Source: Gemmatimonadota bacterium
GTDB taxonomy: Bacteria > Gemmatimonadota > Gemmatimonadetes > Gemmatimonadales > JACORV01
Assembly: GCA_041484135.1 (NCBI GenBank)
Contig: JBGPHD010000003.1
Location: 1-47,629, forward strand
Reading direction: 5' to 3'
Length of the DNA stretch: 47,629 nucleotides
This document shows positions 38,288-47,629 of the stretch, one piece after another. The number at the start of each line of letters is the position of its first letter. Within the stretch, counting starts at the first letter, position 1. Below the pieces are notes generated by a model. The model ran no database searches, was not told the DNA's origin, and worked only from the letters and a program-made list of their open reading frames with translations. The position numbers were made by a program, and so were the translations under genes.

Positions 38288-39210
38288 TGGCCGACCTCCC
38301 GAAGGAAGGCCTCCTCGGTGCGCACGTCTCGAGCGAGGGTGGCGTCGCCCGCGCCCCCGCGCGCGGCGGCGCCATCGGCGCCACGGCGATCCAGCTCTTC
38401 ACCAAGACGCCTAACCAATGGCGCGAGCGCGAGGTGGCGCCCGAGGCCGCCCGGGAGTTCGGGGACGCCATGGCCCGCCACGGGATCAGGGTCGCGGTCA
38501 GCCACGACTCGTACCTCATCAACCTCGCCTCTCCCAAAGGCGCGCTCCGCGCCCGCTCGCAGGCCGCCTTCACCGCCGAGCTCTTTCGGGCCGAGCGGCT
38601 GGGGCTCGCGTACGTCGTCTCGCATCCCGGCAACTACCTCGACGACCGTGCCCGCGGCCTGGCGCGCAACGCGCTGGCCTACGCCGAGTGCCTTGCGGCC
38701 GCACCGGGCCGGGTGAAGGTGGCGATCGAGGTCACCGCCGGATCGGGGACGGCCCTCGGCGCGCACTTCGAGGAGCTGGGGGAGCTGGTGGACCGGATGC
38801 CCGCCCGGGCGCGGAAGCGCGTCGCCTTCTGCGCCGACACCTGTCACCTCTTCGCCGCCGGCTACGACCTGGCCGGTGACTTCGACGGCGTCTGGCGTGC
38901 CTTCGACCGGGTGCTGGGATTCGAGCGGCTGGCGGTCATGCACCTCAACGACTCGCGCGGCGGCCTGGGCAGCCGGCTCGACCGGCATCAGCTGATCGGC
39001 GACGGCGAGCTGGGGAAGGAGCCGTTCAGGAGGATCATGACCGATCCGAGGTTCCGGGGCGCGATCAAGCTGATCGAGACCCCCAAGGGGGAGGACGGCG
39101 TCACGAACGACCGGAAGATGCTGCGCCGTCTCAGGGCGTATGCGCGCGGCGGCGCGGGGTCGGCGGGGCTTGGGACGGCCGTTCCCACCTCTCGGGAACC
39201 GGAACTTTGA
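38287..39210 (+). CDS. nfo: Endonuclease IV
   Basis: LGAHVS, QLFTK, HDSYLINL, HPG, DTCHLFAAGYDL, HLNDS, DRH, ETP. Confidence 0.95.
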   Translation: MADLPKEGLLGAHVSSEGGVARAPARGGAIGATAIQLFTKTPNQWREREVAPEAAREFGDAMARHGIRVAVSHDSYLINLASPKGALRARSQAAFTAELFRAERLGLAYVVSHPGNYLDDRARGLARNALAYAECLAAAPGRVKVAIEVTAGSGTALGAHFEELGELVDRMPARARKRVAFCADTCHLFAAGYDLAGDFDGVWRAFDRVLGFERLAVMHLNDSRGGLGSRLDRHQLIGDGELGKEPFRRIMTDPRFRGAIKLIETPKGEDGVTNDRKMLRRLRAYARGGAGSAGLGTAVPTSREPEL

Positions 39211-39235
39211 GACCCACCGGGTGATATGCTATCCT
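39207..39235 (+). promoter_or_regulatory. Sigma70-type promoter predicted to give a leaderless transcript starting at ATG 39241
   Basis: TTGAGA (39207-39212), 17-nt spacer, TATCCT (39230-39235) with extended TG; the ATG is 6 nt after the -10 and has no SD. Confidence 0.55.
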
Positions 39236-39240
39236 TCGAC

Positions 39241-39594
39241 ATGCAGCGGACTTCGGGCCGGCTCAACTGGATACGCCGTTTGGCGTGCGTCTTCGCCGTG
39301 GGGCAAGGCCTGCTCTACGCCGCGCTGCCGTTCGCCGAGGCGCGGATGGAGCACCCGCCCGCCACGGCCGGCTACGAGTCCCGCCACAGTCACGACTGCG
39401 TCGCTCTCCATCAGCCCGACAAGTGCGTCTTCTGCCAGCTCGCCACGATGCGGGCCCGCCGCACCGACGCCGTGCTCGTCCGAGCGGAAGGCCGCACGGT
39501 CCTGGTGGGTGCGCCCAACCGCGGGACCGCCGAGCCGGAGCGCTTCGTCCATCGGTCGACCCTCTCCCGAGCCCCTCCCTCCTCCCTCGCCTGA
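39241..39594 (+). CDS. DUF2946/CruR-like leader protein with His/Cys cluster and C-terminal RAPP motif
   Basis: Signal-like hydrophobic N-terminus, HSHDCVALHQPDKCVFC, ends SRAPPSSLA; precedes a metal-uptake operon. Confidence 0.8.
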   Translation: MQRTSGRLNWIRRLACVFAVGQGLLYAALPFAEARMEHPPATAGYESRHSHDCVALHQPDKCVFCQLATMRARRTDAVLVRAEGRTVLVGAPNRGTAEPERFVHRSTLSRAPPSSLA

Positions 39595-39640
39595 GCTCGC
39601 GGCGGCGCACGGTGCGCCGCCCTACTCCAGCTACGAGGGA
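39583..39640 (+). promoter_or_regulatory. Predicted SD-sequestering RNA structure between the RAPP leader and the OMP gene
   Basis: TCCCTCG (39583-39589) is exactly complementary to CGAGGGA (39634-39640, the SD), enclosing the hairpin GGCGGCGCAC-G-GTGCGCCGCC (39601-39621). Confidence 0.65.
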
Positions 39641-39642
39641 CC

Positions 39643-40896
39643 GTGAAGATCCATCCGATACGACGGCGAGCGGTCACGCTCGTCACGATGATACTGCTCT
39701 GGGGCGGCGCGCTCGCCGCGCAGACCCCGGCCGACTCGGTGGCGCGCCGCCAGCAACGCACGCTCGACTCGCTGGCCGCGGCCCTCCGGGCCCTCCAGGC
39801 CCGGCTCGACAGCCTGGCCCGCGCGCGGGCGGACACGGCGCCGACCGACGACCTGGCCGCGCTGCGCGCCGCGGCCGCCGCCGCCGCGCCCGATTCGGGG
39901 ACGGCCAGCGCACCACGCCAGGCCCGCTTGGGCCAGAACGCACTCAACCCCGAGATCAGTGTCACCGCCATTGTGCACGCGGGCGTAGACCGACCGGGGC
40001 CGCAGGCTGAGCCCTTCAGCGCGCGTGAGTTCGAGTTCTCGTTCCAGTCCGCGCTCGATCCATACTCGTACACCAAGATCTTCCTCTCGGTCACGGACGA
40101 GGGGGCGGAGGTCGAGGAAGGCTATGCCTTCTGGTCCGGACTTCCCGGCCACACCCGGCTCGACGTCGGCCGGCTGCGCCAGCCGCTCGGCGAGCTGAAC
40201 CGGTGGCACCGGCATGCGCTGCCGGAGGGCGAGTTGCCGCTCGTGCATCAGCGCTACCTCGGCGGCACGGAAGGATTGAAAGGCACCGGCGTCTCACTCT
40301 ACGCGCCGCTGCCCATCTCCGGCCGGGCGGGAACCTACGAGTGGTACGGCCAGGTCACGCAGGGCACGAACGATTCCCTGTTCCTGGGCGGCAACCGGCC
40401 GAGCTTTCTGTCCGCGCTGTCGGGGTTCTGGCAGTTCACGCGTTCCACCTTCGCGCAGGTAAGCGTGTCCGGGGCCTACGGGACCAATCCCGACTCCAGC
40501 CTCAAGACGACGATCGGCGCGCTCGCGGTCCGCTTCACGTGGCGCCCGCCGGCCGAGGGCACGCGTCGTGAGTTCACGACGCGGGGGGAGCTGTTCGCGC
40601 TCCACCGCCGGTTCGCCGGCACCGGACCGGCCCGCCTTGGCGGGTACCTCGCCGCCTACTGGCGGCTCGACCGCCGCTGGATCGTCGGGGTGCGCGGCGA
40701 CTACGTTCAGTCCCCGGATCCCGTCGTCGCGGCACACGAGTGGGAGCTCCACTCGACGCTCACGTTCTGGCAGAGCGAATTCGTCTACCTTCGCGCCGAA
40801 TTCACCCACCACCGCGATGTCGCCGGCTTCAACTCCGAACGCCTTGCTCTCCACGCCGTCTGGGCCATGGGGCCCCACAAACACGAGCTCTTCTAA
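39643..40896 (+). CDS. Outer-membrane beta-barrel protein associated with metal ABC uptake
   Basis: Signal peptide, coiled coil, LNPEISV, REFEFSFQSALDPY, EVEEGY, NRWHRH, His-rich end GPHKHELF. Confidence 0.75.
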   Translation: MKIHPIRRRAVTLVTMILLWGGALAAQTPADSVARRQQRTLDSLAAALRALQARLDSLARARADTAPTDDLAALRAAAAAAAPDSGTASAPRQARLGQNALNPEISVTAIVHAGVDRPGPQAEPFSAREFEFSFQSALDPYSYTKIFLSVTDEGAEVEEGYAFWSGLPGHTRLDVGRLRQPLGELNRWHRHALPEGELPLVHQRYLGGTEGLKGTGVSLYAPLPISGRAGTYEWYGQVTQGTNDSLFLGGNRPSFLSALSGFWQFTRSTFAQVSVSGAYGTNPDSSLKTTIGALAVRFTWRPPAEGTRREFTTRGELFALHRRFAGTGPARLGGYLAAYWRLDRRWIVGVRGDYVQSPDPVVAAHEWELHSTLTFWQSEFVYLRAEFTHHRDVAGFNSERLALHAVWAMGPHKHELF

Positions 40897-41940
40897 ATGA
40901 CTACCATGCTGCTCTCCGCGCTCACCGTCGCCGCCGCCCTGACGACGCCACCCAACCCCGTCCGGGTCGTGACCTCACTCACGACCTACGCCGCCATCAC
41001 CCGCGAGATCACGGGTGACCGCGCCACCGTCACCTCCATCGCCGAGGGGGATGAGGATCCGCATTTCGTGCAGCCGCGTCCCAGCTTCGTGCCGGCGCTG
41101 CGCGACGCGGACCTCTTCGTCAGCACCGGGATGGACCTCGAGCTGTGGGTCCCGGCCTTGCTCGACCGTGCCGGGAACGCGAACGTCCGCGAAGGCGGCC
41201 GGGGCTACGTCGCCGCGTACCAGGGCATCCACATCCTCGAGATACCCACTTCTTTGAGCCGCGCGCAGGGCGACATTCACGTGGACGGCAACCCGCACAT
41301 CTGGTCCGACCCGATCAGCGCGATCATCATCGCGCGCAACATCCTGGCGGGTCTCCAGCGGGTCTCGCCCGAGAACAGCGCCTTCTTCGCCGGGCGCGAG
41401 CAGGACTTCGAGCTGCGCATCCTACGCGCCACCTTCGGCGAGGAGCTGGTGCGGATCGTCACGCCGGCCGCGCTCTTCGGCCTCGCCAACAGCGACCGCC
41501 TGTTGCCGTTCCTCCAGAGCACCAACTACCAGGGCCATCCGCTGATCAGCCGCCTGGGTGGGTGGATGCAGCAGGCCCAGGCGTTCCGCGGGCGTGAGAT
41601 GGTCTGCTACCACAAGGAATGGAGCTACTTCTCCAACCGGTACGGCGTGCAGTGCGTCGAGTACATCGAGGCGAAGCCCGGCATCCCGCCGACGCCGCGG
41701 CACGTCCAGGATGTGATCGCGCTGATGCGCGACCGGCACATTCCGGTCCTCTTCGCCGCGAACTACTTCGACCGGAGCCAGATCCAGCAGGTGGCCGAGC
41801 GGACCGGGGCGACGGCGGTCGTCGTGCCGGCCATGACGAATGGCGCGCCCGGGATCACCACGTACTTCGACCTCATGAACACCTGGATCACCCAGCTGGC
41901 GCAGGGGTTCGCCGGCACGGCCGCGACGGGGGCGAGGTGA
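40897..41940 (+). CDS. Metal ABC transporter substrate-binding protein (ZnuA/TroA cluster A-I)
   Basis: EDPHFV, ADLFVSTGMDLE, GNPHIWSDP, YHKEWSYF, EAKPGIPPTPRH. Confidence 0.92.
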   Translation: MTTMLLSALTVAAALTTPPNPVRVVTSLTTYAAITREITGDRATVTSIAEGDEDPHFVQPRPSFVPALRDADLFVSTGMDLELWVPALLDRAGNANVREGGRGYVAAYQGIHILEIPTSLSRAQGDIHVDGNPHIWSDPISAIIIARNILAGLQRVSPENSAFFAGREQDFELRILRATFGEELVRIVTPAALFGLANSDRLLPFLQSTNYQGHPLISRLGGWMQQAQAFRGREMVCYHKEWSYFSNRYGVQCVEYIEAKPGIPPTPRHVQDVIALMRDRHIPVLFAANYFDRSQIQQVAERTGATAVVVPAMTNGAPGITTYFDLMNTWITQLAQGFAGTAATGAR

Positions 41941-42788
41941 GCGCCTTCCTCGAGATCATGCTCGCGCCCTTCGTGGCGTGCATGATCCTGGTCGCGGTCC
42001 ATTCGTACCTGGGGCTCCACGTCATCTCGCGCGAGGTGATCTTCGTGGACCTCTCCCTGGCGCAGATGGCGGCGCTCGGCACGACCATCGCCCTGTTCCT
42101 CGGCGTGGCGCGCACCTCGCCGTGGGCGCAGGCGTTCGCGCTCGCCGCCACGGTGCTCGGCGCGGCGGTCTTCGCCGCCACCCGCACCAAGAACCACGGC
42201 CGCGTGCCGCAGGAGGCCATCATCGGCATCGTGTACGTGGTCGCCTCCGCCGCCGCGATCCTGGTAGCCAACCAGACCCCGAGCGGCGGCGAGGCCATCA
42301 AGGAGATCCTCGAGGGCACCGTCCTCTGGGTCACCTGGGCCACGATCCTCAAGCTGCTGATCGCGTATGTCGTGCTGGGGACGTATTTCTTCATCATGCG
42401 CCGGCGATTCGAGACCATCTCCTTCGAGCCCGTGGTGGCCGAGTCGAAGGGCTGGCACATGCGGTGGTGGGACTTCTGGTTCTACCTCGGCTTCGGCATC
42501 GTGATCACCTTCTCGGTGCCGATCGCCGGCGTGCCGCTGGTGTTCAGCTTCCTGGTCGTGCCGGCCGTCACGGCGTTCCTCTTCACCAGGAAACCGCTCC
42601 TGCTCACCCTGATCGCCTGGGTGACCGGCGCGGTGGCGTCCGCCACCGGCCTCGCGGTCTCCTACTGGAGCGACTGGCCCACCGGGCCGACCATCGTCTG
42701 CACCTTCGGCCTGGTGCTGCTGATCGCCGCGATGGGGAGGCGGCTCTTCAGTGGACCGGCGGAAGCCCCGGAGGCTCCGGCCGCGTGA
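41937..42788 (+). CDS. Metal ABC transporter permease (ZnuB/MntB-like)
   Basis: YLGLHVISREVIFVDLSLAQMAALG, EAIIGIVY, DWPTGPTIV, multiple TM helices; GTGA overlap. Confidence 0.9.
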   Translation: MSAFLEIMLAPFVACMILVAVHSYLGLHVISREVIFVDLSLAQMAALGTTIALFLGVARTSPWAQAFALAATVLGAAVFAATRTKNHGRVPQEAIIGIVYVVASAAAILVANQTPSGGEAIKEILEGTVLWVTWATILKLLIAYVVLGTYFFIMRRRFETISFEPVVAESKGWHMRWWDFWFYLGFGIVITFSVPIAGVPLVFSFLVVPAVTAFLFTRKPLLLTLIAWVTGAVASATGLAVSYWSDWPTGPTIVCTFGLVLLIAAMGRRLFSGPAEAPEAPAA

Positions 42789-43483
42789 GCTGGCCGTCGC
42801 CTTCGCGTCGCGCGGGGATCCTCGCGCGGCTCTCGCTCGCGGCGGGCGCCGCCGGCCTCGCGGCCGCGATCGCCTGCCACGACACCACCGGCACCAGCGC
42901 CTGCTTCGAGCCTAACGCCTCAGGGTACCAGTTCAGCCTCGCCGCCGACACCGGCTTCGTGTTCCGCTGGCCCGGCAGCTACATGCCGGTGCGCGTGTAT
43001 GCCGAGGACGTGGGCGAGCTCCAGGCCAACACCGCGGCGGCCATGCAGCTCTGGGTGAACGCCTTCCGGTGCAGCGAGCTTTCGATGGTGACCGTGACCG
43101 ACTCCACCAAGGCCGACATCATCGTGCGGAACCCGGCGTTCCTGCCCCCTGTCGCCGGCGCCGTGGTCGTCGCGGCCGACTCGGTGGGCGCGTGCCGGGG
43201 CGTCACCACCGACAGCACCTTCACCGGTCTCTCCACGCTGGCGGAGCCGGTCCGCGTGTTCGTCGCCCCGGTCTCCGTCGACTCCGCCGCCGTCGCGGCC
43301 TGCTACCATTTCGTGACGGCGCACGAGCTGGGGCACGCGCTGGGCCTGCTCTCCCACAGCCCCGACACCCTGGACATCATGTATACCCAGCCCCGGCGCC
43401 GGGTCCTCTCCGAGGCCGACAAGTTCACCATCCAGGTCCTCTACCACGCCGCGCCGACCATCGGACCGCCGCCCCGGCAATGA
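42785..43483 (+). CDS. Matrixin (M10-like) zinc metalloprotease lipoprotein
   Basis: Lipobox AIAC, HELGHALGLLSHS, Met-turn DIM, LSEADK. Confidence 0.85.
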   Translation: MSWPSPSRRAGILARLSLAAGAAGLAAAIACHDTTGTSACFEPNASGYQFSLAADTGFVFRWPGSYMPVRVYAEDVGELQANTAAAMQLWVNAFRCSELSMVTVTDSTKADIIVRNPAFLPPVAGAVVVAADSVGACRGVTTDSTFTGLSTLAEPVRVFVAPVSVDSAAVAACYHFVTAHELGHALGLLSHSPDTLDIMYTQPRRRVLSEADKFTIQVLYHAAPTIGPPPRQ

Positions 43484-44133
43484 CCCGCGCCCGCGCGATC
43501 ACCGAGGCGGAGGTCCGCCGCGCCGCGGGCGCCTCACGCACGCTGGCGGTGGCGAAGGGCACGGTGGTGACGCCGGCTGCGAGAGATCTGGCGAAGCAGC
43601 TGGGGGTGGCGCTCGTAAGTCAGAGTGACGTGAGCCGGGAGCCGGGAGCCGGACCGTCGGCGCCCGACGCGGGTCCGGCTCCCGCCTCCCGGCTCCCCGT
43701 CATCGCCCTCGGCGCCGACCACGGCGGCTTCCCGATGAAGGAGCACCTCAAGACCGTCCTCACCGAGCTGGGATACAATGTCCTAGACGTGGGCACGAAC
43801 GGCACCGCGGCGGTCGACTATCCCGACTTCGCCGTTCGGGTCGCGCGCGCGGTGGCGGAGGCGCGGGCGTGGCGGGGGATCATGGTGGACGGCGCCGGGA
43901 TTGGCAGCTCGATGGCCGCGAACAAGGTCGCCGGTATCCGCGCGGCGCTCTGCTACGACCTCACCACCGCGCAGAACGCGCGCGAGCACAACGACGCCAA
44001 CGTGTTGACGTTAGGTGGCACGCTGCTCGGCCCCCGGCTCGCCGCCGAGATCGTGCGCGCCTTCCTCGCCACTCCGTTCGGCGGGGGGCGGCACCAGCGC
44101 CGCGTCGACAAGATCAACGCCCTGGACCGCTGA
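43480..44133 (+). CDS. rpiB: RpiB/LacA/LacB sugar-phosphate isomerase with an extra N-terminal domain
   Basis: IALGADHGG, VDYPDFA, AANKVAGIRAA, AREHNDANVL, GGRHQRRVDKI. Confidence 0.88.
   Translation: MTRARAITEAEVRRAAGASRTLAVAKGTVVTPAARDLAKQLGVALVSQSDVSREPGAGPSAPDAGPAPASRLPVIALGADHGGFPMKEHLKTVLTELGYNVLDVGTNGTAAVDYPDFAVRVARAVAEARAWRGIMVDGAGIGSSMAANKVAGIRAALCYDLTTAQNAREHNDANVLTLGGTLLGPRLAAEIVRAFLATPFGGGRHQRRVDKINALDR
43632..43695. repeat. 24-bp inverted repeat built from GGAGCCG heptamers, in frame in the rpiB linker
   Basis: GAGCCGGGAGCCGGGAGCCGGACC (43632-43655) versus GGTCCGGCTCCCGCCTCCCGGCTC (43672-43695): 23/24 complementary. Confidence 0.85.
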
Positions 44134-44477
44134 TGCGCCTGCGCCGCCTCGCCCTTCGCCTCAAGGCGCTGCTCCTCCTCGCGACGTTCGTGGGCAGCGG
44201 CCTTCCGACGGCGCTCGACGTGGCGCTGCACCACCTGCGCCCCGGGCTGGCGGCACCGCTACCGCACCTCGACCCGCCGGGCGGCTGCCACAGCCACGCC
44301 GAGCACTGCCTGCTGCGCGGGCACGACTCCGCCCTGCGCTTCGCGGTCACGAAGGTCCCGCTCCGCCTCGCTGCCCAGCGCGCCGAGCGCCTCGGCCTCC
44401 TGCCGGGAGACGATCCGCGCCCCCGGCTCCTTCCCTTCCTCCATCACTCGCGAGCCCCTCCGCAGCCGTTGGTCTGA
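44133..44477 (+). CDS. Second His/Cys-rich RAPP leader protein, upstream of the TonB-dependent receptor
   Basis: ATG overlaps the rpiB stop (TGATG); hydrophobic N-terminus; HH...H...CHSHAEHC; ends HHSRAPPQPLV. Confidence 0.78.
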   Translation: MRLRRLALRLKALLLLATFVGSGLPTALDVALHHLRPGLAAPLPHLDPPGGCHSHAEHCLLRGHDSALRFAVTKVPLRLAAQRAERLGLLPGDDPRPRLLPFLHHSRAPPQPLV

Positions 44478-44547
44478 CCGTTCCCTGACATCAGACAACG
44501 AGACCGCGCCCCGCCGCCGTTGCGGCGCGGTGCGACCACCTACGGAG
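44458..44547 (+). promoter_or_regulatory. Predicted SD-sequestering RNA structure upstream of the TBDR
   Basis: CTCCGCAG (44458-44465, includes the PP codons) pairs 7/8 with CTACGGAG (44540-44547, SD). Inner hairpins at 44467-44500 and 44503-44531. Confidence 0.55.
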
Positions 44548-44552
44548 ATGCC

Positions 44553-46811
44553 ATGTCACCGCTCTTCATCGCGGCGGCGCTTGCCATGTCGGCAGGCCTG
44601 CCCACGACCACCTCCCCCGTCGATCCCCCGCCCACGCGCGCCGTCTCCGGGCGCGTCACCGATCCTTCCGGCGCGCCCCTCGCGGACGTCCGCGTCAGCG
44701 TTCTCGAGGCCCGCCGCTCGACCTCCACCGACGACTCCGGGCGCTACCGCGTCGCCGAGCTGTCGCGTGGCACCTTCACGGTGTCGTTCCGCTCCATCGG
44801 CCACCGACCCGAGACGCGGCGGGTCACGCTCACCACCGCGAATGTCACCCTCGACGTCGTGATGCAGGTAACGCTGGTCGAGCTGGACGCCTTGCAGGTC
44901 ACCGCCACGCCCACCGCCACCGACGCGCTCGCCTCACCGCAACCCGTGGCGGCGCGCGGCGGCGAGGAGCTGGCCGCCAGCCAGGCCCCGACCCTCGGTG
45001 AGACCATCCAGGGCATGCCGGGCGTGCGCAACTCGAGCACCGGCGTCGGTATCGGCAAGCCGGTGATCCGCGGGCTCACCTCCAACCGCGTCCTCATCCT
45101 CGACAACGGCCAGCGCCTCGAGACCCAGCAATGGGGCGACGAGCACGCCCCTAATCTCGAGACCGTGGACGCAGACCACATCGAAGTGCTGCGCGGACCG
45201 GCCAGCGTGCTCTACGGCTCCGATGCCCTGGGCGGCGTGGTCAACGTGGTGCGCCCCGAGCTGCCGGACGCCATCGGGCGGCCGGCGTTCGTGCACCTGA
45301 CGGCGGCCGGCGGCTACGGCACCAACAACCGGGAGCCCGACGGCTCCCTGACCGTCAGCGGCGCGAGCGGCCACGTCGGCTTCCGCGGCGGGCTCACCGG
45401 CCGCACCAGCGAGAACGTCCGGACGCCGTCGTACACGCTTTGGAACAGCGGCAATCGCGCCACGGGCGGCAACGGGGCGCTCGGCATCCGCGGCGCATGG
45501 GGCTCGGCGTCGGCCACATACTCGCGCCGTGTCGAGCACATCCAGCTCACCGACCTGGACAGCACGGCGACACCCAACCAGCGCATCGGCACCGACGTCG
45601 GCCGGGTTGAACTCGCCCTCCCCCTCGGCCCCTCCCGGCTGGAGGTCACCGGCGGATGGGAACGCAGCCGCCGACGCGAGTTCGAGGAGGACACGTCCAC
45701 CGCGGTCGTGCTGGGCCTCCTTCAGACGACGTATACCACCGATGTGCACTTCCACCACGCACCGCTCGGCCGGGTGAACGGGACTCTCGGCTTCTCAGGC
45801 GTGCGGACGACCTTCGACAAGTCCGGCGAGGAAACATTGATCCCGAACTCCCGGACAACCAGCGCCGGGGTGTACGCCTTCGAGCAAACGGAAACGGGAC
45901 GCTGGGGACTCTCGGCGGGACTGCGGTACGACTATCGCCGGCTGGATGTGGACGACGACACCGTCATCGCCGTGACAGCGCAGCAACGCACCTATAGCTC
46001 GGCAACGGGCAACGTCGGCCTGCTCTACCGCGTCTCCGAGCCTGTCGCGCTGGTGCTGAACGTGGGCCGCGGCTTCCGGGCGCCTTCCACCTTCGACCTG
46101 TTCTCCAACGGCGTGCACGAGGGTACATCGGCCTTCGAGCGTGGCGACCCGACGCTCCGCAACGAGACCTCGCTCAACACCGACATCGCGCTGCGCGTGC
46201 GCACCGCCGACATGCTGCTGGTGGTCGGGGCGTTCCTCAACGCGATCCAGAACTACATCTACACCGTCCCGACCGGCACCAGCGACTCGGCGTCCGGCTT
46301 CGAGATCTTCGACGTGACGCAGGGGGACGCCCGCCTGACCGGAGGCGAGCTCTCCGTGGAGTACCACCCGGCACGCGCCATTCACGTCAGCGCGAGCGCG
46401 GACTACGTGCGGGGCCAGAACACCACCACGGGCAGTCCGGTCCCCAAGATGCCGCCGCTGCGGGCAACGTACGGGATCCGCTACGAGCCTCGCGGGCGCG
46501 GCGCCATCCGCAGTCCCTTCCTTCAGGTGAGCGGCGAAACGAACGCCCGTCAGACGCGCCTCGATCCCGCAGAGGCCCAGTTCTACGCCGCCGCGTTCGG
46601 CGGCGTCGGCTATCAGTCCGCGGCGTATAGCCTCTTCAATGCAGGCGGCGGCTTCGACGTGGCGGGCGGCGGGCGAACGCTCCACTTCTCGGTGGCGCTG
46701 CATAACGTCTTCAACACCTCCTATGCGGAGTATCTCAGCCGCATCAAGACCAACGCGCGTAACCCCGGCATGGGGCGCACCCTAAACGGGAGGGTTTCAA
46801 TCGACTTCTGA
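44553..46811 (+). CDS. TonB-dependent receptor with N-terminal carboxypeptidase-regulatory-like domain, probably a transition-metal transporter
   Basis: Signal peptide, plug KPVIRG...QQWGDEH...IEVLRGPASVLYGSDALGGVVN, RGFRAPS, NGVHEG, C-terminal Phe; SD GGAG before ATG 44553. Confidence 0.93.
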   Translation: MSPLFIAAALAMSAGLPTTTSPVDPPPTRAVSGRVTDPSGAPLADVRVSVLEARRSTSTDDSGRYRVAELSRGTFTVSFRSIGHRPETRRVTLTTANVTLDVVMQVTLVELDALQVTATPTATDALASPQPVAARGGEELAASQAPTLGETIQGMPGVRNSSTGVGIGKPVIRGLTSNRVLILDNGQRLETQQWGDEHAPNLETVDADHIEVLRGPASVLYGSDALGGVVNVVRPELPDAIGRPAFVHLTAAGGYGTNNREPDGSLTVSGASGHVGFRGGLTGRTSENVRTPSYTLWNSGNRATGGNGALGIRGAWGSASATYSRRVEHIQLTDLDSTATPNQRIGTDVGRVELALPLGPSRLEVTGGWERSRRREFEEDTSTAVVLGLLQTTYTTDVHFHHAPLGRVNGTLGFSGVRTTFDKSGEETLIPNSRTTSAGVYAFEQTETGRWGLSAGLRYDYRRLDVDDDTVIAVTAQQRTYSSATGNVGLLYRVSEPVALVLNVGRGFRAPSTFDLFSNGVHEGTSAFERGDPTLRNETSLNTDIALRVRTADMLLVVGAFLNAIQNYIYTVPTGTSDSASGFEIFDVTQGDARLTGGELSVEYHPARAIHVSASADYVRGQNTTTGSPVPKMPPLRATYGIRYEPRGRGAIRSPFLQVSGETNARQTRLDPAEAQFYAAAFGGVGYQSAAYSLFNAGGGFDVAGGGRTLHFSVALHNVFNTSYAEYLSRIKTNARNPGMGRTLNGRVSIDF

Positions 46812-46982: not shown

Positions 46983-47629
46983 ATGGCCGTACGCCGACAG
47001 GAAGCACTCGACTATCATGCCGGGCATCGGCCCGGCAAGATCCAGATCGCGATCACCAAGCCCTGCAAGACCCAGCGCGATCTCTCCCTCGCCTACACGC
47101 CTGGCGTCGCCGAGCCGTGTCTCGACATCCAGAAGACCCCCGACGACGCGTTCAAGTACACCGCCCGCGGCAACCTCGTCGCGGTAGTGTCCAACGGGAC
47201 CGCCGTGCTGGGGCTCGGGGACATCGGGCCGCTCGCCGGCAAGCCGGTGATGGAGGGCAAGGGCGTCCTCTTCAAGACCTTCGCCGACGTGGACGTCTTC
47301 GACCTCGAGATCAACGCACCCACGGCGGGCGAGTGCATCGCCTTCTGCGAGATGCTCGAGCCCACGGTGGGCGGCATCAACCTCGAGGACATCAAGGCCC
47401 CCGAGTGCTTCGAGGTCGAGGAGACCCTGAAGGCGCGCCTCGCCATCCCGGTCTTCCACGACGACCAGCACGGCACCGCGATCATCTCGGGCGCCGCGCT
47501 CCTCAACGCCGCGGAGGTCACCGGCCGCAAACTCGCCGACCTCAAGGTCGTCTTCAGCGGCGCCGGCGCCTCGGCCATCGCCACGGCGAACCACTACGTG
47601 CGGCTCGGCGTCACGCTCGAGCACATCAC
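46983..47629 (+). CDS. maeB: NADP-dependent malic enzyme (5' part; runs off the window)
   Basis: SD GGAGGA; [12 protein letters not shown]...PGKI...[17 protein letters not shown]...NGTAVLGLG...[12 protein letters not shown]...[12 protein letters not shown]...[10 protein letters not shown]. Confidence 0.95.

Follow-up and report, generated by a model that had tools for sequence, protein, structure and literature searches.

Arrest peptides that sense metals, such as CruR and CutF, have recently been recognised as a form of post-transcriptional control, for which copper alone has been studied so far. Elements of this kind are in the literature already: CruR since 2022, CutF-like proteins since 2023, and upstream open reading frames (uORFs) with RAPP or RGPP motifs before TonB receptors since 2025. 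Here we describe leader 2, a 114-amino-acid (aa) open reading frame (ORF) at 44133..44477 of a 47,629-nucleotide (nt) stretch of DNA from a Gemmatimonadota bacterium (contig JBGPHD010000003.1, assembly GCA_041484135.1), the whole of which is called the window below; all of its features mentioned here lie on the + strand. Leader 2 carries RAPP near its end and stands before the gene of a TonB-dependent receptor (44553..46811, 752 aa). It is very probably a real leader of the arrest type, and we lean towards a cis-acting role, in which arrest would control the receptor by unmasking its gene's Shine–Dalgarno sequence (SD).

CruR (Bp2923) of Bordetella pertussis, a DUF2946 protein (Roy et al. 2022, PMC9426467), shares with leader 2 the small ORF, the N-terminal hydrophobic signal, the RAPP motif 3–4 residues before the stop, a Cys motif 44–45 residues upstream of it and a TonB-dependent transporter directly downstream, and the two are probably linked by profile-level homology through local leaders with CxxC. 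Whereas CruR has CxxC, belongs to the PF11162 family and heads its operon, leader 2 has CLLR, with the second Cys absent and D29, H34, H45 and H55 invariant, has no PF11162 match at an expect value (E) ≤1, and lies mid-operon, coupled to rpiB. The intergenic region of CruR measures 162 nt and its output is Rho-dependent termination, whereas that of leader 2 measures 75 nt and is predicted to be structured; the neighbours are PepSY_TM and copper genes in the one case and ZnuA/ZnuB-like genes in the other.

CutF and CutF-like proteins of Rhodobacter capsulatus and other bacteria (Ozturk et al. 2023, PMC9973294; bioRxiv 10.1101/2025.02.05.636593) are nascent exported sensors with a C-terminal Pro motif, whose stalled ribosome melts a stem-loop shielding the SD of the next gene; such shielding is predicted at leader 2 as well. 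CutF has CxxxC and PPP where leader 2 has RAPP, copper induces its stalling and its target is a multicopper oxidase; unlike in CutF, the putative anti-SD of leader 2 lies inside the arrest codons themselves. The CutF-like proteins number 5,334 in 29 clusters with Cys, His or mixed sites, some are suggested to sense Ni or Co, and their neighbours include OEP/RND efflux and TonB-like genes (PMC9973294), types also seen around the leader 2 family. Leader 2 fits the CutF-like rule set in its length (114 aa), its PP at residues 109–110 and its receptor 75 nt downstream on the + strand; where that set asks for a Sec signal peptide predicted by SignalP, leader 2 shows a predicted hydrophobic N-terminal helix (residues 2-21). 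Gemmatimonadota has 0 occurrences in the text searched on CutF-like proteins, the supplementary cluster logos lying outside that text.

RAPP/RGPP arrest peptides comprise ApdA, ApdP and a 'TonB-related' uORF class (EMBO J 2025, PMC12992588), which is stated to be general in Gram-negative bacteria and which shares with leader 2 the small protein, the near-C-terminal RAPP, a localisation signal and the position upstream of a TonB-dependent receptor. Motif and annotated neighbours alone define that class; ligand set, spacing and RNA pairing are not described in the searched text of PMC12992588, in which 'zinc' and 'secondary structure' have 0 occurrences. Leader 2 belongs to it by length (<300 aa), C-terminal RAPP/RGPP, N-terminal hydrophobic helix and downstream receptor. 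Arrest near the end of an upstream ORF also opens a structure hiding the next gene's SD in SecM-secA and MifM-yidC2; these peptides sense the export machinery through pulling force, not metal, and have no sequence relationship to leader 2. Both pairs are named in PMC9973294.

Leader 2 starts with the ATG at 44133 and ends with the TGA at 44475-44477, and encodes nine His and two Cys. Its ATG (44133-35) shares bases with the stop codon of rpiB (44131-33) in a TGATG overlap, which agrees with the coupling originally proposed; rpiB itself (43483..44133) encodes a ribose-5-phosphate isomerase B with an N-terminal extension of ~70 aa, recognised by Pfam LacAB_rpiB (E 1e-53, residues 74-211) and by NCBIfam PRK05571 (176.7 bits, over its cut-off of 135). 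With G+C fractions of 0.86, 0.51 and 0.90 at the three codon positions (GC1/2/3), leader 2 matches coding sequence of this window, whose overall G+C is 71.9%, and its GC3 is similar to that of the neighbouring genes. The protein begins with a basic stretch followed by a hydrophobic one, and the codons of residues 2-21 (44136..44195) are predicted to encode a helix (AlphaFold2 predicted local distance difference test, pLDDT, 95-97, and hydropathy) that could serve as export signal or membrane anchor; the hydrophobic N-terminus noted originally is confirmed. A putative metal-binding segment follows at 44217..44309, with D29 (44217-19), H34 (44232-34), H45 (44265-67), H55 (44295-97) and C59 (44307-09); the motif CHSHAEHC occupies residues 52-59 (44286-44309) at its end. 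The RAPP codons CGA GCC CCT CCG (44451..44462, residues 107-110 of 114) are the predicted arrest site, by extension from work on CruR, ApdA and ApdP (PMC12992588, PMC9426467). The original prediction had let the protein end in HHSRAPP, which is not the case: four tail codons for QPLV and the TGA stop follow (44463..44477), so that the C-terminal end reads ...LHHSRAPPQPLV and RAPP lies four residues from it. In an AlphaFold2 model built with 111 sequences (mean pLDDT 74.2), helices cover residues 2-21 and 24-34 and the remainder is mostly coil, with block means of 55-78 past residue 34; this coil-rich model may be likened to CruR, which was described as 'poorly structured' (PMC9426467).

Leader 2 has no match in Pfam or NCBIfam even at lenient thresholds (E ≤1 for Pfam). 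Among 61 related genomes, 12 places in 10 other genomes matched it at E ≤5e-4, and ten loci taken from the best of those places each encode a protein of ~115 aa with RAPP 4-5 residues before the stop (10/10). Since a word-indexed protein search recovered only 2 relatives, an exhaustive search was needed, in which a hidden Markov model (HMM) from 15 homologues, run against 1.84 billion representative sequences, retrieved 383 proteins at E ≤1e-3, with 187 of them passing E ≤1e-10. Motifs were counted over 151 family proteins: R[AG]PP within 10 residues of the C-terminus is present in 134 (130 RAPP, 4 RGPP), followed in 89 of these by a tail of 4 aa and in 24 by one of 3 aa, and Hx[DE]xCxx with a fourth residue other than Cys is present in 130, whereas CxxC at that motif is present in 0/151. 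The window's leader, with C59-L-L-R, conforms to this pattern, as anticipated for ligands that are not CxxC. Residue conservation was taken from an alignment of 135 members, in which D29 (135), H34 (134), H45 (129), H55 (134) and C59 (134) are near-invariant, like R107 (133), A108 (123), P109 (135) and P110 (135). CHSHAEHC as the ligand block is thereby only partly borne out: H55 and C59 are near-invariant, but C52, the first Cys of this motif, occurs in 71/135 members only, and D29, H34 and H45 outside the block are conserved as well.

The family is found mostly in Gemmatimonadales. Of 301 genomes sampled from the phylum, 73 (29/128 genera), nearly all of one order, contain it, several with two to four copies a few kilobases (kb) apart, and named records with orthologous loci are Gemmatimonadota or Gemmatimonadales metagenome-assembled genomes. 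Where its members are named, they are labelled 'hypothetical protein' (cluster look-up of 10), and the ESM Atlas holds unnamed Gemmatimonadota clusters and one cluster with DUF2946 in 13% of its members. In four sediment-metagenome DNA runs over 43900-44900, no variant letters were seen in leader 2 or the intergenic region, with 44274-44341 lacking depth in two runs and 44410-44511 in one, so that the metagenome contigs provide no population variation for testing selection or compensatory change.

The relation to the CruR kind had been suspected, together with the expectation that models based on CxxC would overlook this leader. The PF11162 model (DUF2946, gathering score 23.7 bits) indeed gives no match to leader 2 at E ≤1; it gives sub-threshold matches in 27/111 family members (best E 6.3e-4), exceeds its cut-off in 1/61 related genomes and has no match at E ≤0.1 in the window's genome. 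BLASTP between leader 2 and leader 1, a CxxC-type leader in the same gene cluster, finds a C-terminal match only (E 0.074), and profiles were therefore compared, with eight CxxC-type RAPP leaders of the same order, the window's leader 1 included, on the other side. hhalign gives 96.4% (E 1e-9) between the two groups and, once the alignment was deepened, 97.0% (E 1e-10) across 107 columns that reach from the N-terminal helix through RAPP, with C59 opposite the first Cys of CxxC and H55 opposite an invariant His four residues before that Cys. The local CxxC leaders that form this bridge are mostly sub-threshold for PF11162, and CruR itself stands outside the comparison. The spacing gives the clearest evidence. 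From the end of the CxxX block to RAPP there are 44 residues in the window's leader 2, 44-45 in 110/115 family proteins, 43-46 in 59/59 leaders before orthologous receptors and 44-45 in 57/59. In CruR the corresponding spacing is 45 residues, and changing it by 5 impaired regulation (PMC9426467). On profile homology and equal spacing to RAPP, leader 2 appears to be a diverged relative of the CruR kind that has lost the second Cys and kept a set of Asp, three His and one Cys, and its family is homologous to the CxxC leaders and no independent invention. The original description as a 'CruR-type switch' mixes two published mechanisms, since SD shielding is that of CutF and CruR acts through Rho-dependent termination. 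At the fourth position of CxxX, 6 of the 59 leaders have Cys, 6 have His and 47 have some other residue. In loci L057, L059, L060, L061, L070 and L104, a leader subtype 'HP[AP]DCAFH', with His in place of the second Cys of CxxC, precedes orthologous receptors; together with the types CxxC and CxxX it makes up a natural series.

The receptor belongs to a ZnuD/haem-receptor-like clade, with Pfam Plug, barrel and CarboxypepD_reg domains; its best solved relative is ZnuD (4rdr, E 1.9e-24), and in NCBIfam it scores 179.9 bits with TonB-hemin and 142.3 bits (E 2.2e-41) with ZnuD (NF038289, cut-off 950 bits), both under the cut-offs. When the receptor protein was scanned against one genome per species, 77 loci were obtained, and those at ≥48% identity all bear the name of Gemmatimonadota or of one of its orders, the title 'Bacterium HR33' being the sole exception. 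The WGDEH and GVHEG motifs noted earlier are present and conserved in its orthologues (QQWGDEH 55/57, GVHEG 41/53). As both align with corresponding His-containing stretches of ZnuD, they appear to be marks of the ZnuD-like receptor clade and not independent evidence for a metal; the His of GVHEG is presumably the one between the FRAP and NPNL boxes of haem receptors.

A leader was scored where an ORF of ≥50 codons ending in R[AGPS]PP-x(0-10)-stop lay just before the receptor, at loci with ≥700 nt of upstream DNA, two loci with 149 and 264 nt being left out. Such an ORF precedes the receptor in 53/54 Gemmatimonadota orthologous loci, the sole exception being the HR33 contig (L107), as compared with 0-7% of control windows (reverse complement 4/54, inside the receptor gene 3/102, further upstream 0/51). 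The search upstream of homologous receptors that had been suggested for RAPP/RGPP ORFs thus turned up a leader almost throughout, and with the 383 homologous representatives the ORF proves to be conserved. Eighteen more distant receptor relatives (25-39% identity; Bacteroidota, Rhodothermales, Ignavibacteriae and others) include five with CxxC leaders ending in RAPP/RGPP.

These counts bear on the idea that leader 2 is a chance open frame in G+C-rich DNA, with RAPP and hairpins coinciding by accident. The window's six frames contain R[AG]PP 58 times, 12 of them ≤10 codons from a stop, so that the motif alone is weak evidence, and the z-score of the local RNA fold is only -1.93. However, R[AG]PP closes a frame open for ≥100 codons only twice in the window, in leader 2 and in leader 1 (39226-39594), and a chance origin would have to account for near-invariant residues among all the homologous representatives, for the leader at nearly every orthologous locus and for a GC3 of 0.90; we consider it exceedingly improbable. 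Leader 2 is, on the comparative evidence, a real feature, and the case for it rests on conservation, not on motif or fold alone.

Leader 2 could alternatively be a small exported metal-binding protein acting in trans, such as a chaperone working in the periplasm between receptor and ZnuA; RAPP would then tune its own synthesis only and the receptor would not be under its control. The hydrophobic N-terminal helix suggests export, the conserved ligands lie in the N-terminal half and the gene stands among transport components. Nevertheless, the modelled coil past residue 34 is unlike a stable domain, and RAPP fixed 3-4 residues from the stop, the 44-45 spacing and the pairing of the leader end with the receptor SD (below) point to a cis role; CutF and CruR were moreover reported as undetectable or degraded (PMC9973294, PMC9426467). 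A function in trans is accordingly given little credence.

At the RNA level, the pairing of the Pro-Pro codons with the receptor's SD that the original prediction proposed is found in the minimum free energy (MFE) and centroid folds, where the segment CUCCG inside the two Pro codons (44458..44462) pairs with CGGAG (44543..44547), which contains the receptor SD GGAG (44544-47) 5 nt before the ATG. The two inner hairpins are also present in the MFE fold: hairpin 1 (44467..44500) has the last codons and the UGA stop of the leader as its 5' arm, and a similar hairpin occurs in the closest homologue (L002/L047); hairpin 2 (44505..44534) is G+C-rich and has no U tract. Hairpin 2 was considered as an intrinsic terminator and rejected, since it lacks the U tract and the terminator scan was negative. 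A scan of 43400-44700 found neither promoters nor terminators, and an Rfam scan of 39000-45000 found no known family, with one sub-threshold, unrelated match; a known riboswitch in the leader 2/receptor region was rejected, as no Rfam family lies there.

Because the z-score of the fold is not significant alone, the pairing was tested across 59 loci. The duplex between the leader end (Ala codon to stop) and positions -20..+3 of the receptor has a mean energy of -15.28 kcal/mol for cognate pairs and -12.71 kcal/mol for non-cognate ones, and the cognate mean was reached in 0/5000 permutations. In partition-function folds, the SD pairs with the segment from RAPP to the stop at a probability (P) ≥0.5 in 47/59 loci, and the mean P of this pairing is 0.78 for cognate and 0.56 for swapped ends (Wilcoxon p 1e-5), with 0.98 in the window; single loci have longer helices in other registers (8-10 bp in L048, L061, L065 and L072). 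The first Pro codon of RAPP is CCT in 35/59 leaders, as compared with 142/2228 (6.4%) of the Pro codons in receptor genes, and with CCT the leader gains CCUCC, the complement of GGAGG. In folds restricted to RNA free of the stalled ribosome, the cost of opening -15..+5 declines from a mean of 12.7 to 9.0 kcal/mol, with a drop of ≥3 kcal/mol in 32/59 loci.

A number of observations speak against SD unmasking and lower its weight. The fold of 44430-44575 (-50.2 kcal/mol, z = -1.93) is equalled by 11/200 shuffles, and the outer helix comprises only 5 bp in the window. CCNCCN Pro-Pro codons are inherently complementary to GGAGG, as reflected in the 0.56 of the swapped ends; CCA is also enriched as first Pro codon (10/59 vs 6.9%), and the CCT and CCA enrichment could be selection for a rare codon, not for pairing. 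The 59 loci are related, so the P values are optimistic, and RNAalifold on 36 intergenic regions gave no consensus structure, the alignment being too divergent. When 60 nt of the upstream leader were kept and the ribosome footprint was blocked, the mean probability of an unpaired SD was 0.08 for free and 0.14 for stalled RNA, with 0/59 loci reaching 0.5, as the SD takes other C-rich partners; with only the RNA 3' of the ribosome, it rose from 0.07 to 0.26 and 8/59 loci reached 0.5. The window's own opening cost declines from 6.1 to 5.6 kcal/mol only, a modelled effect of 0.4 kcal/mol.

The same arrest peptide could also have a CruR-type output, in which the stalled ribosome blocks Rho and allows read-through into the receptor gene, release of the arrest lets Rho terminate in or past the intergenic region, and the RNA structure either is incidental or serves as a pause signal. 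For a RAPP leader before a TonB-dependent transporter, no other mechanism has been demonstrated by experiment (PMC9426467), and the homology of the leader 2 family to the CxxC leaders with equal spacing, the lack of an intrinsic terminator in the scanned region and a somewhat C-rich leader and intergenic region (window intergenic C 0.41, G 0.29) are in its favour. Nevertheless, the C-over-G excess is no larger than in flanking coding sequence, the intergenic region is short (75 nt here and a median of 84 in the 59 loci, vs 162 nt in B. pertussis) and, by prediction, highly structured, which would make it a poor loading site for Rho, and the model gives no role to the cognate pairing of leader end and SD or to the CCT bias. 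Since the region is short and structured and the cognate pairing would be left without a role, the Rho output is less attractive than SD unmasking, and we hold it to be unlikely.

It is thus reasonable to suggest, with slight preference, that leader 2 acts through SD unmasking. A ribosome would enter from rpiB by translational coupling, translate the 114 codons of leader 2 and pause when RAPP's two Pro codons (44457-44462) occupy the P and A sites, as shown in vitro for the RAPP arrest of CruR (PMC12992588). At that point H55-x3-C59 would sit ~50 residues back from the peptidyl-transferase centre and have just cleared the exit tunnel, with D29, H34 and H45 further out, and whether or not a metal is held by the H55-x3-C59 block together with these residues would set the duration of the arrest. 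Because the anti-SD belongs to the arrest and tail codons, the arrested ribosome, in covering the Pro and tail codons, would keep the SD partner in its mRNA channel, so that the receptor SD would be freed and the receptor translated; after release and termination the structure would re-form and the receptor would be turned off. In the case of an uptake receptor, one expects the sign of CruR, with metal binding relieving the arrest and metal-replete cells switching the receptor off. Sensing was proposed to be cytoplasmic for CruR (PMC9426467) and periplasmic, during co-translational export, for CutF (PMC9973294). For leader 2 we infer the arrest, the direction of the metal effect, the site of sensing (cytoplasm or periplasm) and the identity of the metal.

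Zinc is favoured by the gene context, and Zn(II) would be the most likely ligand judged from the neighbouring genes, an assignment that we place a little on the doubtful side of an even call. Upstream of leader 2 the window encodes a ZnuA-like binding protein (40897-41940; Pfam ZnuA 7.3e-49) and a ZnuB-like ABC-3 permease (41937-42788; Pfam ABC-3 4e-32), whose best NCBIfam matches are the zinc proteins AztC and AztB; together with ZnuD as the receptor's best solved relative, these are the grounds for preferring zinc. No gene for the ATPase (ZnuC) was noticed in the window's cluster among the ORF list and Pfam scans. The two transporter genes overlap by 4 nt. In 50 loci with ≥2300 nt upstream, a ZnuB-like gene lies directly before the leader-receptor pair in 24 and a ZnuA-like gene in 22, whereas rpiB and a peptidase gene do so in only 1/50 other loci (L047). 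Given these counts, the ZnuA/ZnuB-like transporter seems to be the conserved link of the leader-receptor pair, and the coupling to rpiB a local insertion.

Two sets of observations detract from the zinc assignment and are shared by its alternative, a leader of the same design whose ligand is copper or another metal (Ni, Co, Mn, Fe). The zinc assignments of receptor, binding protein and permease are all under curated cut-offs; the receptor also matches OprC (E ~5e-16) and TIGR01778 TonB-copper (E 7.7e-27, under cut-off), ZnuA/ABC-3 systems also carry Mn or Fe, and the ZnuA-like protein scores against the MntC model (E 1.1e-17). Secondly, 6/59 orthologous receptors have canonical CxxC leaders, like the copper sensor CruR, and Cys plus His ligands suit Cu. 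An invariant Asp/His-rich set with a single Cys is nevertheless more usual for Zn(II) than for Cu(I), the linked genes are the ZnuA/ZnuB-like pair and a receptor with ZnuD as best solved relative, and the Pfam scan of the cluster genes showed none of PepSY_TM, PCuAC, Sco, YcnI and CopC, the copper-linked genes reported beside cruR. In favour of copper, the two relatives that have been characterised are both Cu sensors (PMC9426467, PMC9973294). Taken together, copper or another metal as the ligand is conceivable and, in our estimate, doubtful.

The same leader family is also found before another receptor type (814-824 aa), before the 417-aa protein followed by ZnuA, and before OEP-(MFP)-RND operons (L021, L022, L023, L128 and L136), of which the RND pump of L021 matches TIGR00914 (CusA/CzcA) with 903.8 bits, over the cut-off of 701.45. 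Near-identical sensors of one family, with the same leader-end/SD design, therefore stand before importers and CusA/CzcA-type efflux operons, which weakens the simple scheme, as a single logic of 'metal relieves arrest' does not explain both. Should arrest mean 'on' in every case, the metal would have to act with opposite signs at importers and exporters, and opposite signs have already been noted between CruR and CutF in the literature; alternatively, the importer and exporter gene sets might both be required in one and the same condition. L021 has a second leader, which starts 7 nt past the RND gene and precedes a receptor. In L023 (10989-11888), the C-terminal part of a second leader copy matches the family (…PGLHQDSRAPPAALA) and its N-terminal part lies in another frame, a possible frameshift or assembly error. 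Three to four family copies per genome are seen in G133 and G170 (C54, C88), and those at G133:C108 74686-82692 lie ~3.8 kb apart on one strand.

The full picture, that of a zinc-sensing nascent peptide with Asp, three His and one Cys 44-45 residues from RAPP, an anti-SD in the arrest codons and reuse of the module before importers, namely a ZnuD-like receptor and a porin-like protein with ZnuA/ZnuB, and before CzcCBA-type exporters, is something that we put forward tentatively. If it held, one peptide design would give opposite outputs by context, the sensor module would be placed sometimes two to four times in one gene cluster, and leader 2 would be the first zinc-responsive arrest peptide described, as far as the literature was searched, in which none was found. 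Beyond that, the leader 2 family places this module outside Proteobacteria, in a form missed by the Pfam model and by any CxxC rule, with a changed ligand set, the spacing to the arrest site kept and a context that points to zinc. The fixed spacing, the CxxC/CxxH/CxxX series and the anti-SD in the Pro codons bear on how a nascent chain turns metal binding into arrest or release, and the presence of one sensor before importers as well as exporters poses the question what determines the sign of the response.

The novelty originally attached to this leader has to be narrowed, as CutF-like leaders with His/Cys variants, and RAPP uORFs in front of TonB receptors, have been published before (PMC9973294, PMC12992588). 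In the literature searched, no description was found of a Gemmatimonadales family with a single Cys and invariant Asp/His at CruR spacing, whose members may be listed in supplements of PMC9973294 and PMC9426467, of a link of such leaders to ZnuABC-like genes and a ZnuD-like receptor, of an anti-SD written into the Pro codons with a CCT bias, or of mid-operon, tandem use of such leaders.

Leader 1 (39226..39594, 122 aa, CxxC type with CVFC, ending RAPPSSLA), the 'first leader' of the original prediction, heads the gene cluster to which leader 2 belongs, and has a weak DUF2946 match (E 0.028, under cut-off). Its CxxC-to-RAPP spacing, counted from the sequence, is 44 residues, pairing is predicted between its tail codons UCCCUCG and the next gene's SD CGAGGGA, and a homologue occupies the same position in the window's closest relative (G012). 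The next gene (39643-40896) encodes a putative outer-membrane protein of 417 aa ending in HKHELF, with no Pfam or NCBIfam match, which may be a metal-related porin; its nearest named ESM Atlas cluster has Porin_O_P in 22% of members, and in several Gemmatimonadales homologues have RAPP leaders upstream and ZnuA downstream. The permease and leader 2 are separated by two inserted genes (together 42788-44133), one for an M10-like metallopeptidase with a HELGH motif (Pfam Matrixin E 7.1e-7) and the other the N-extended rpiB. The closest relative (G012; L024, L047) has the window's order, with leader 1, an outer-membrane protein of 417-420 aa, the ZnuA-like protein, ABC-3 permease, M10-like peptidase, rpiB, leader 2 and receptor, and there a 368-aa protein without Pfam or NCBIfam family follows the receptor. 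In the window the receptor is the last gene of the cluster, and the next + strand ORF (46983-47629) is malic-enzyme-like, judged by eye only.

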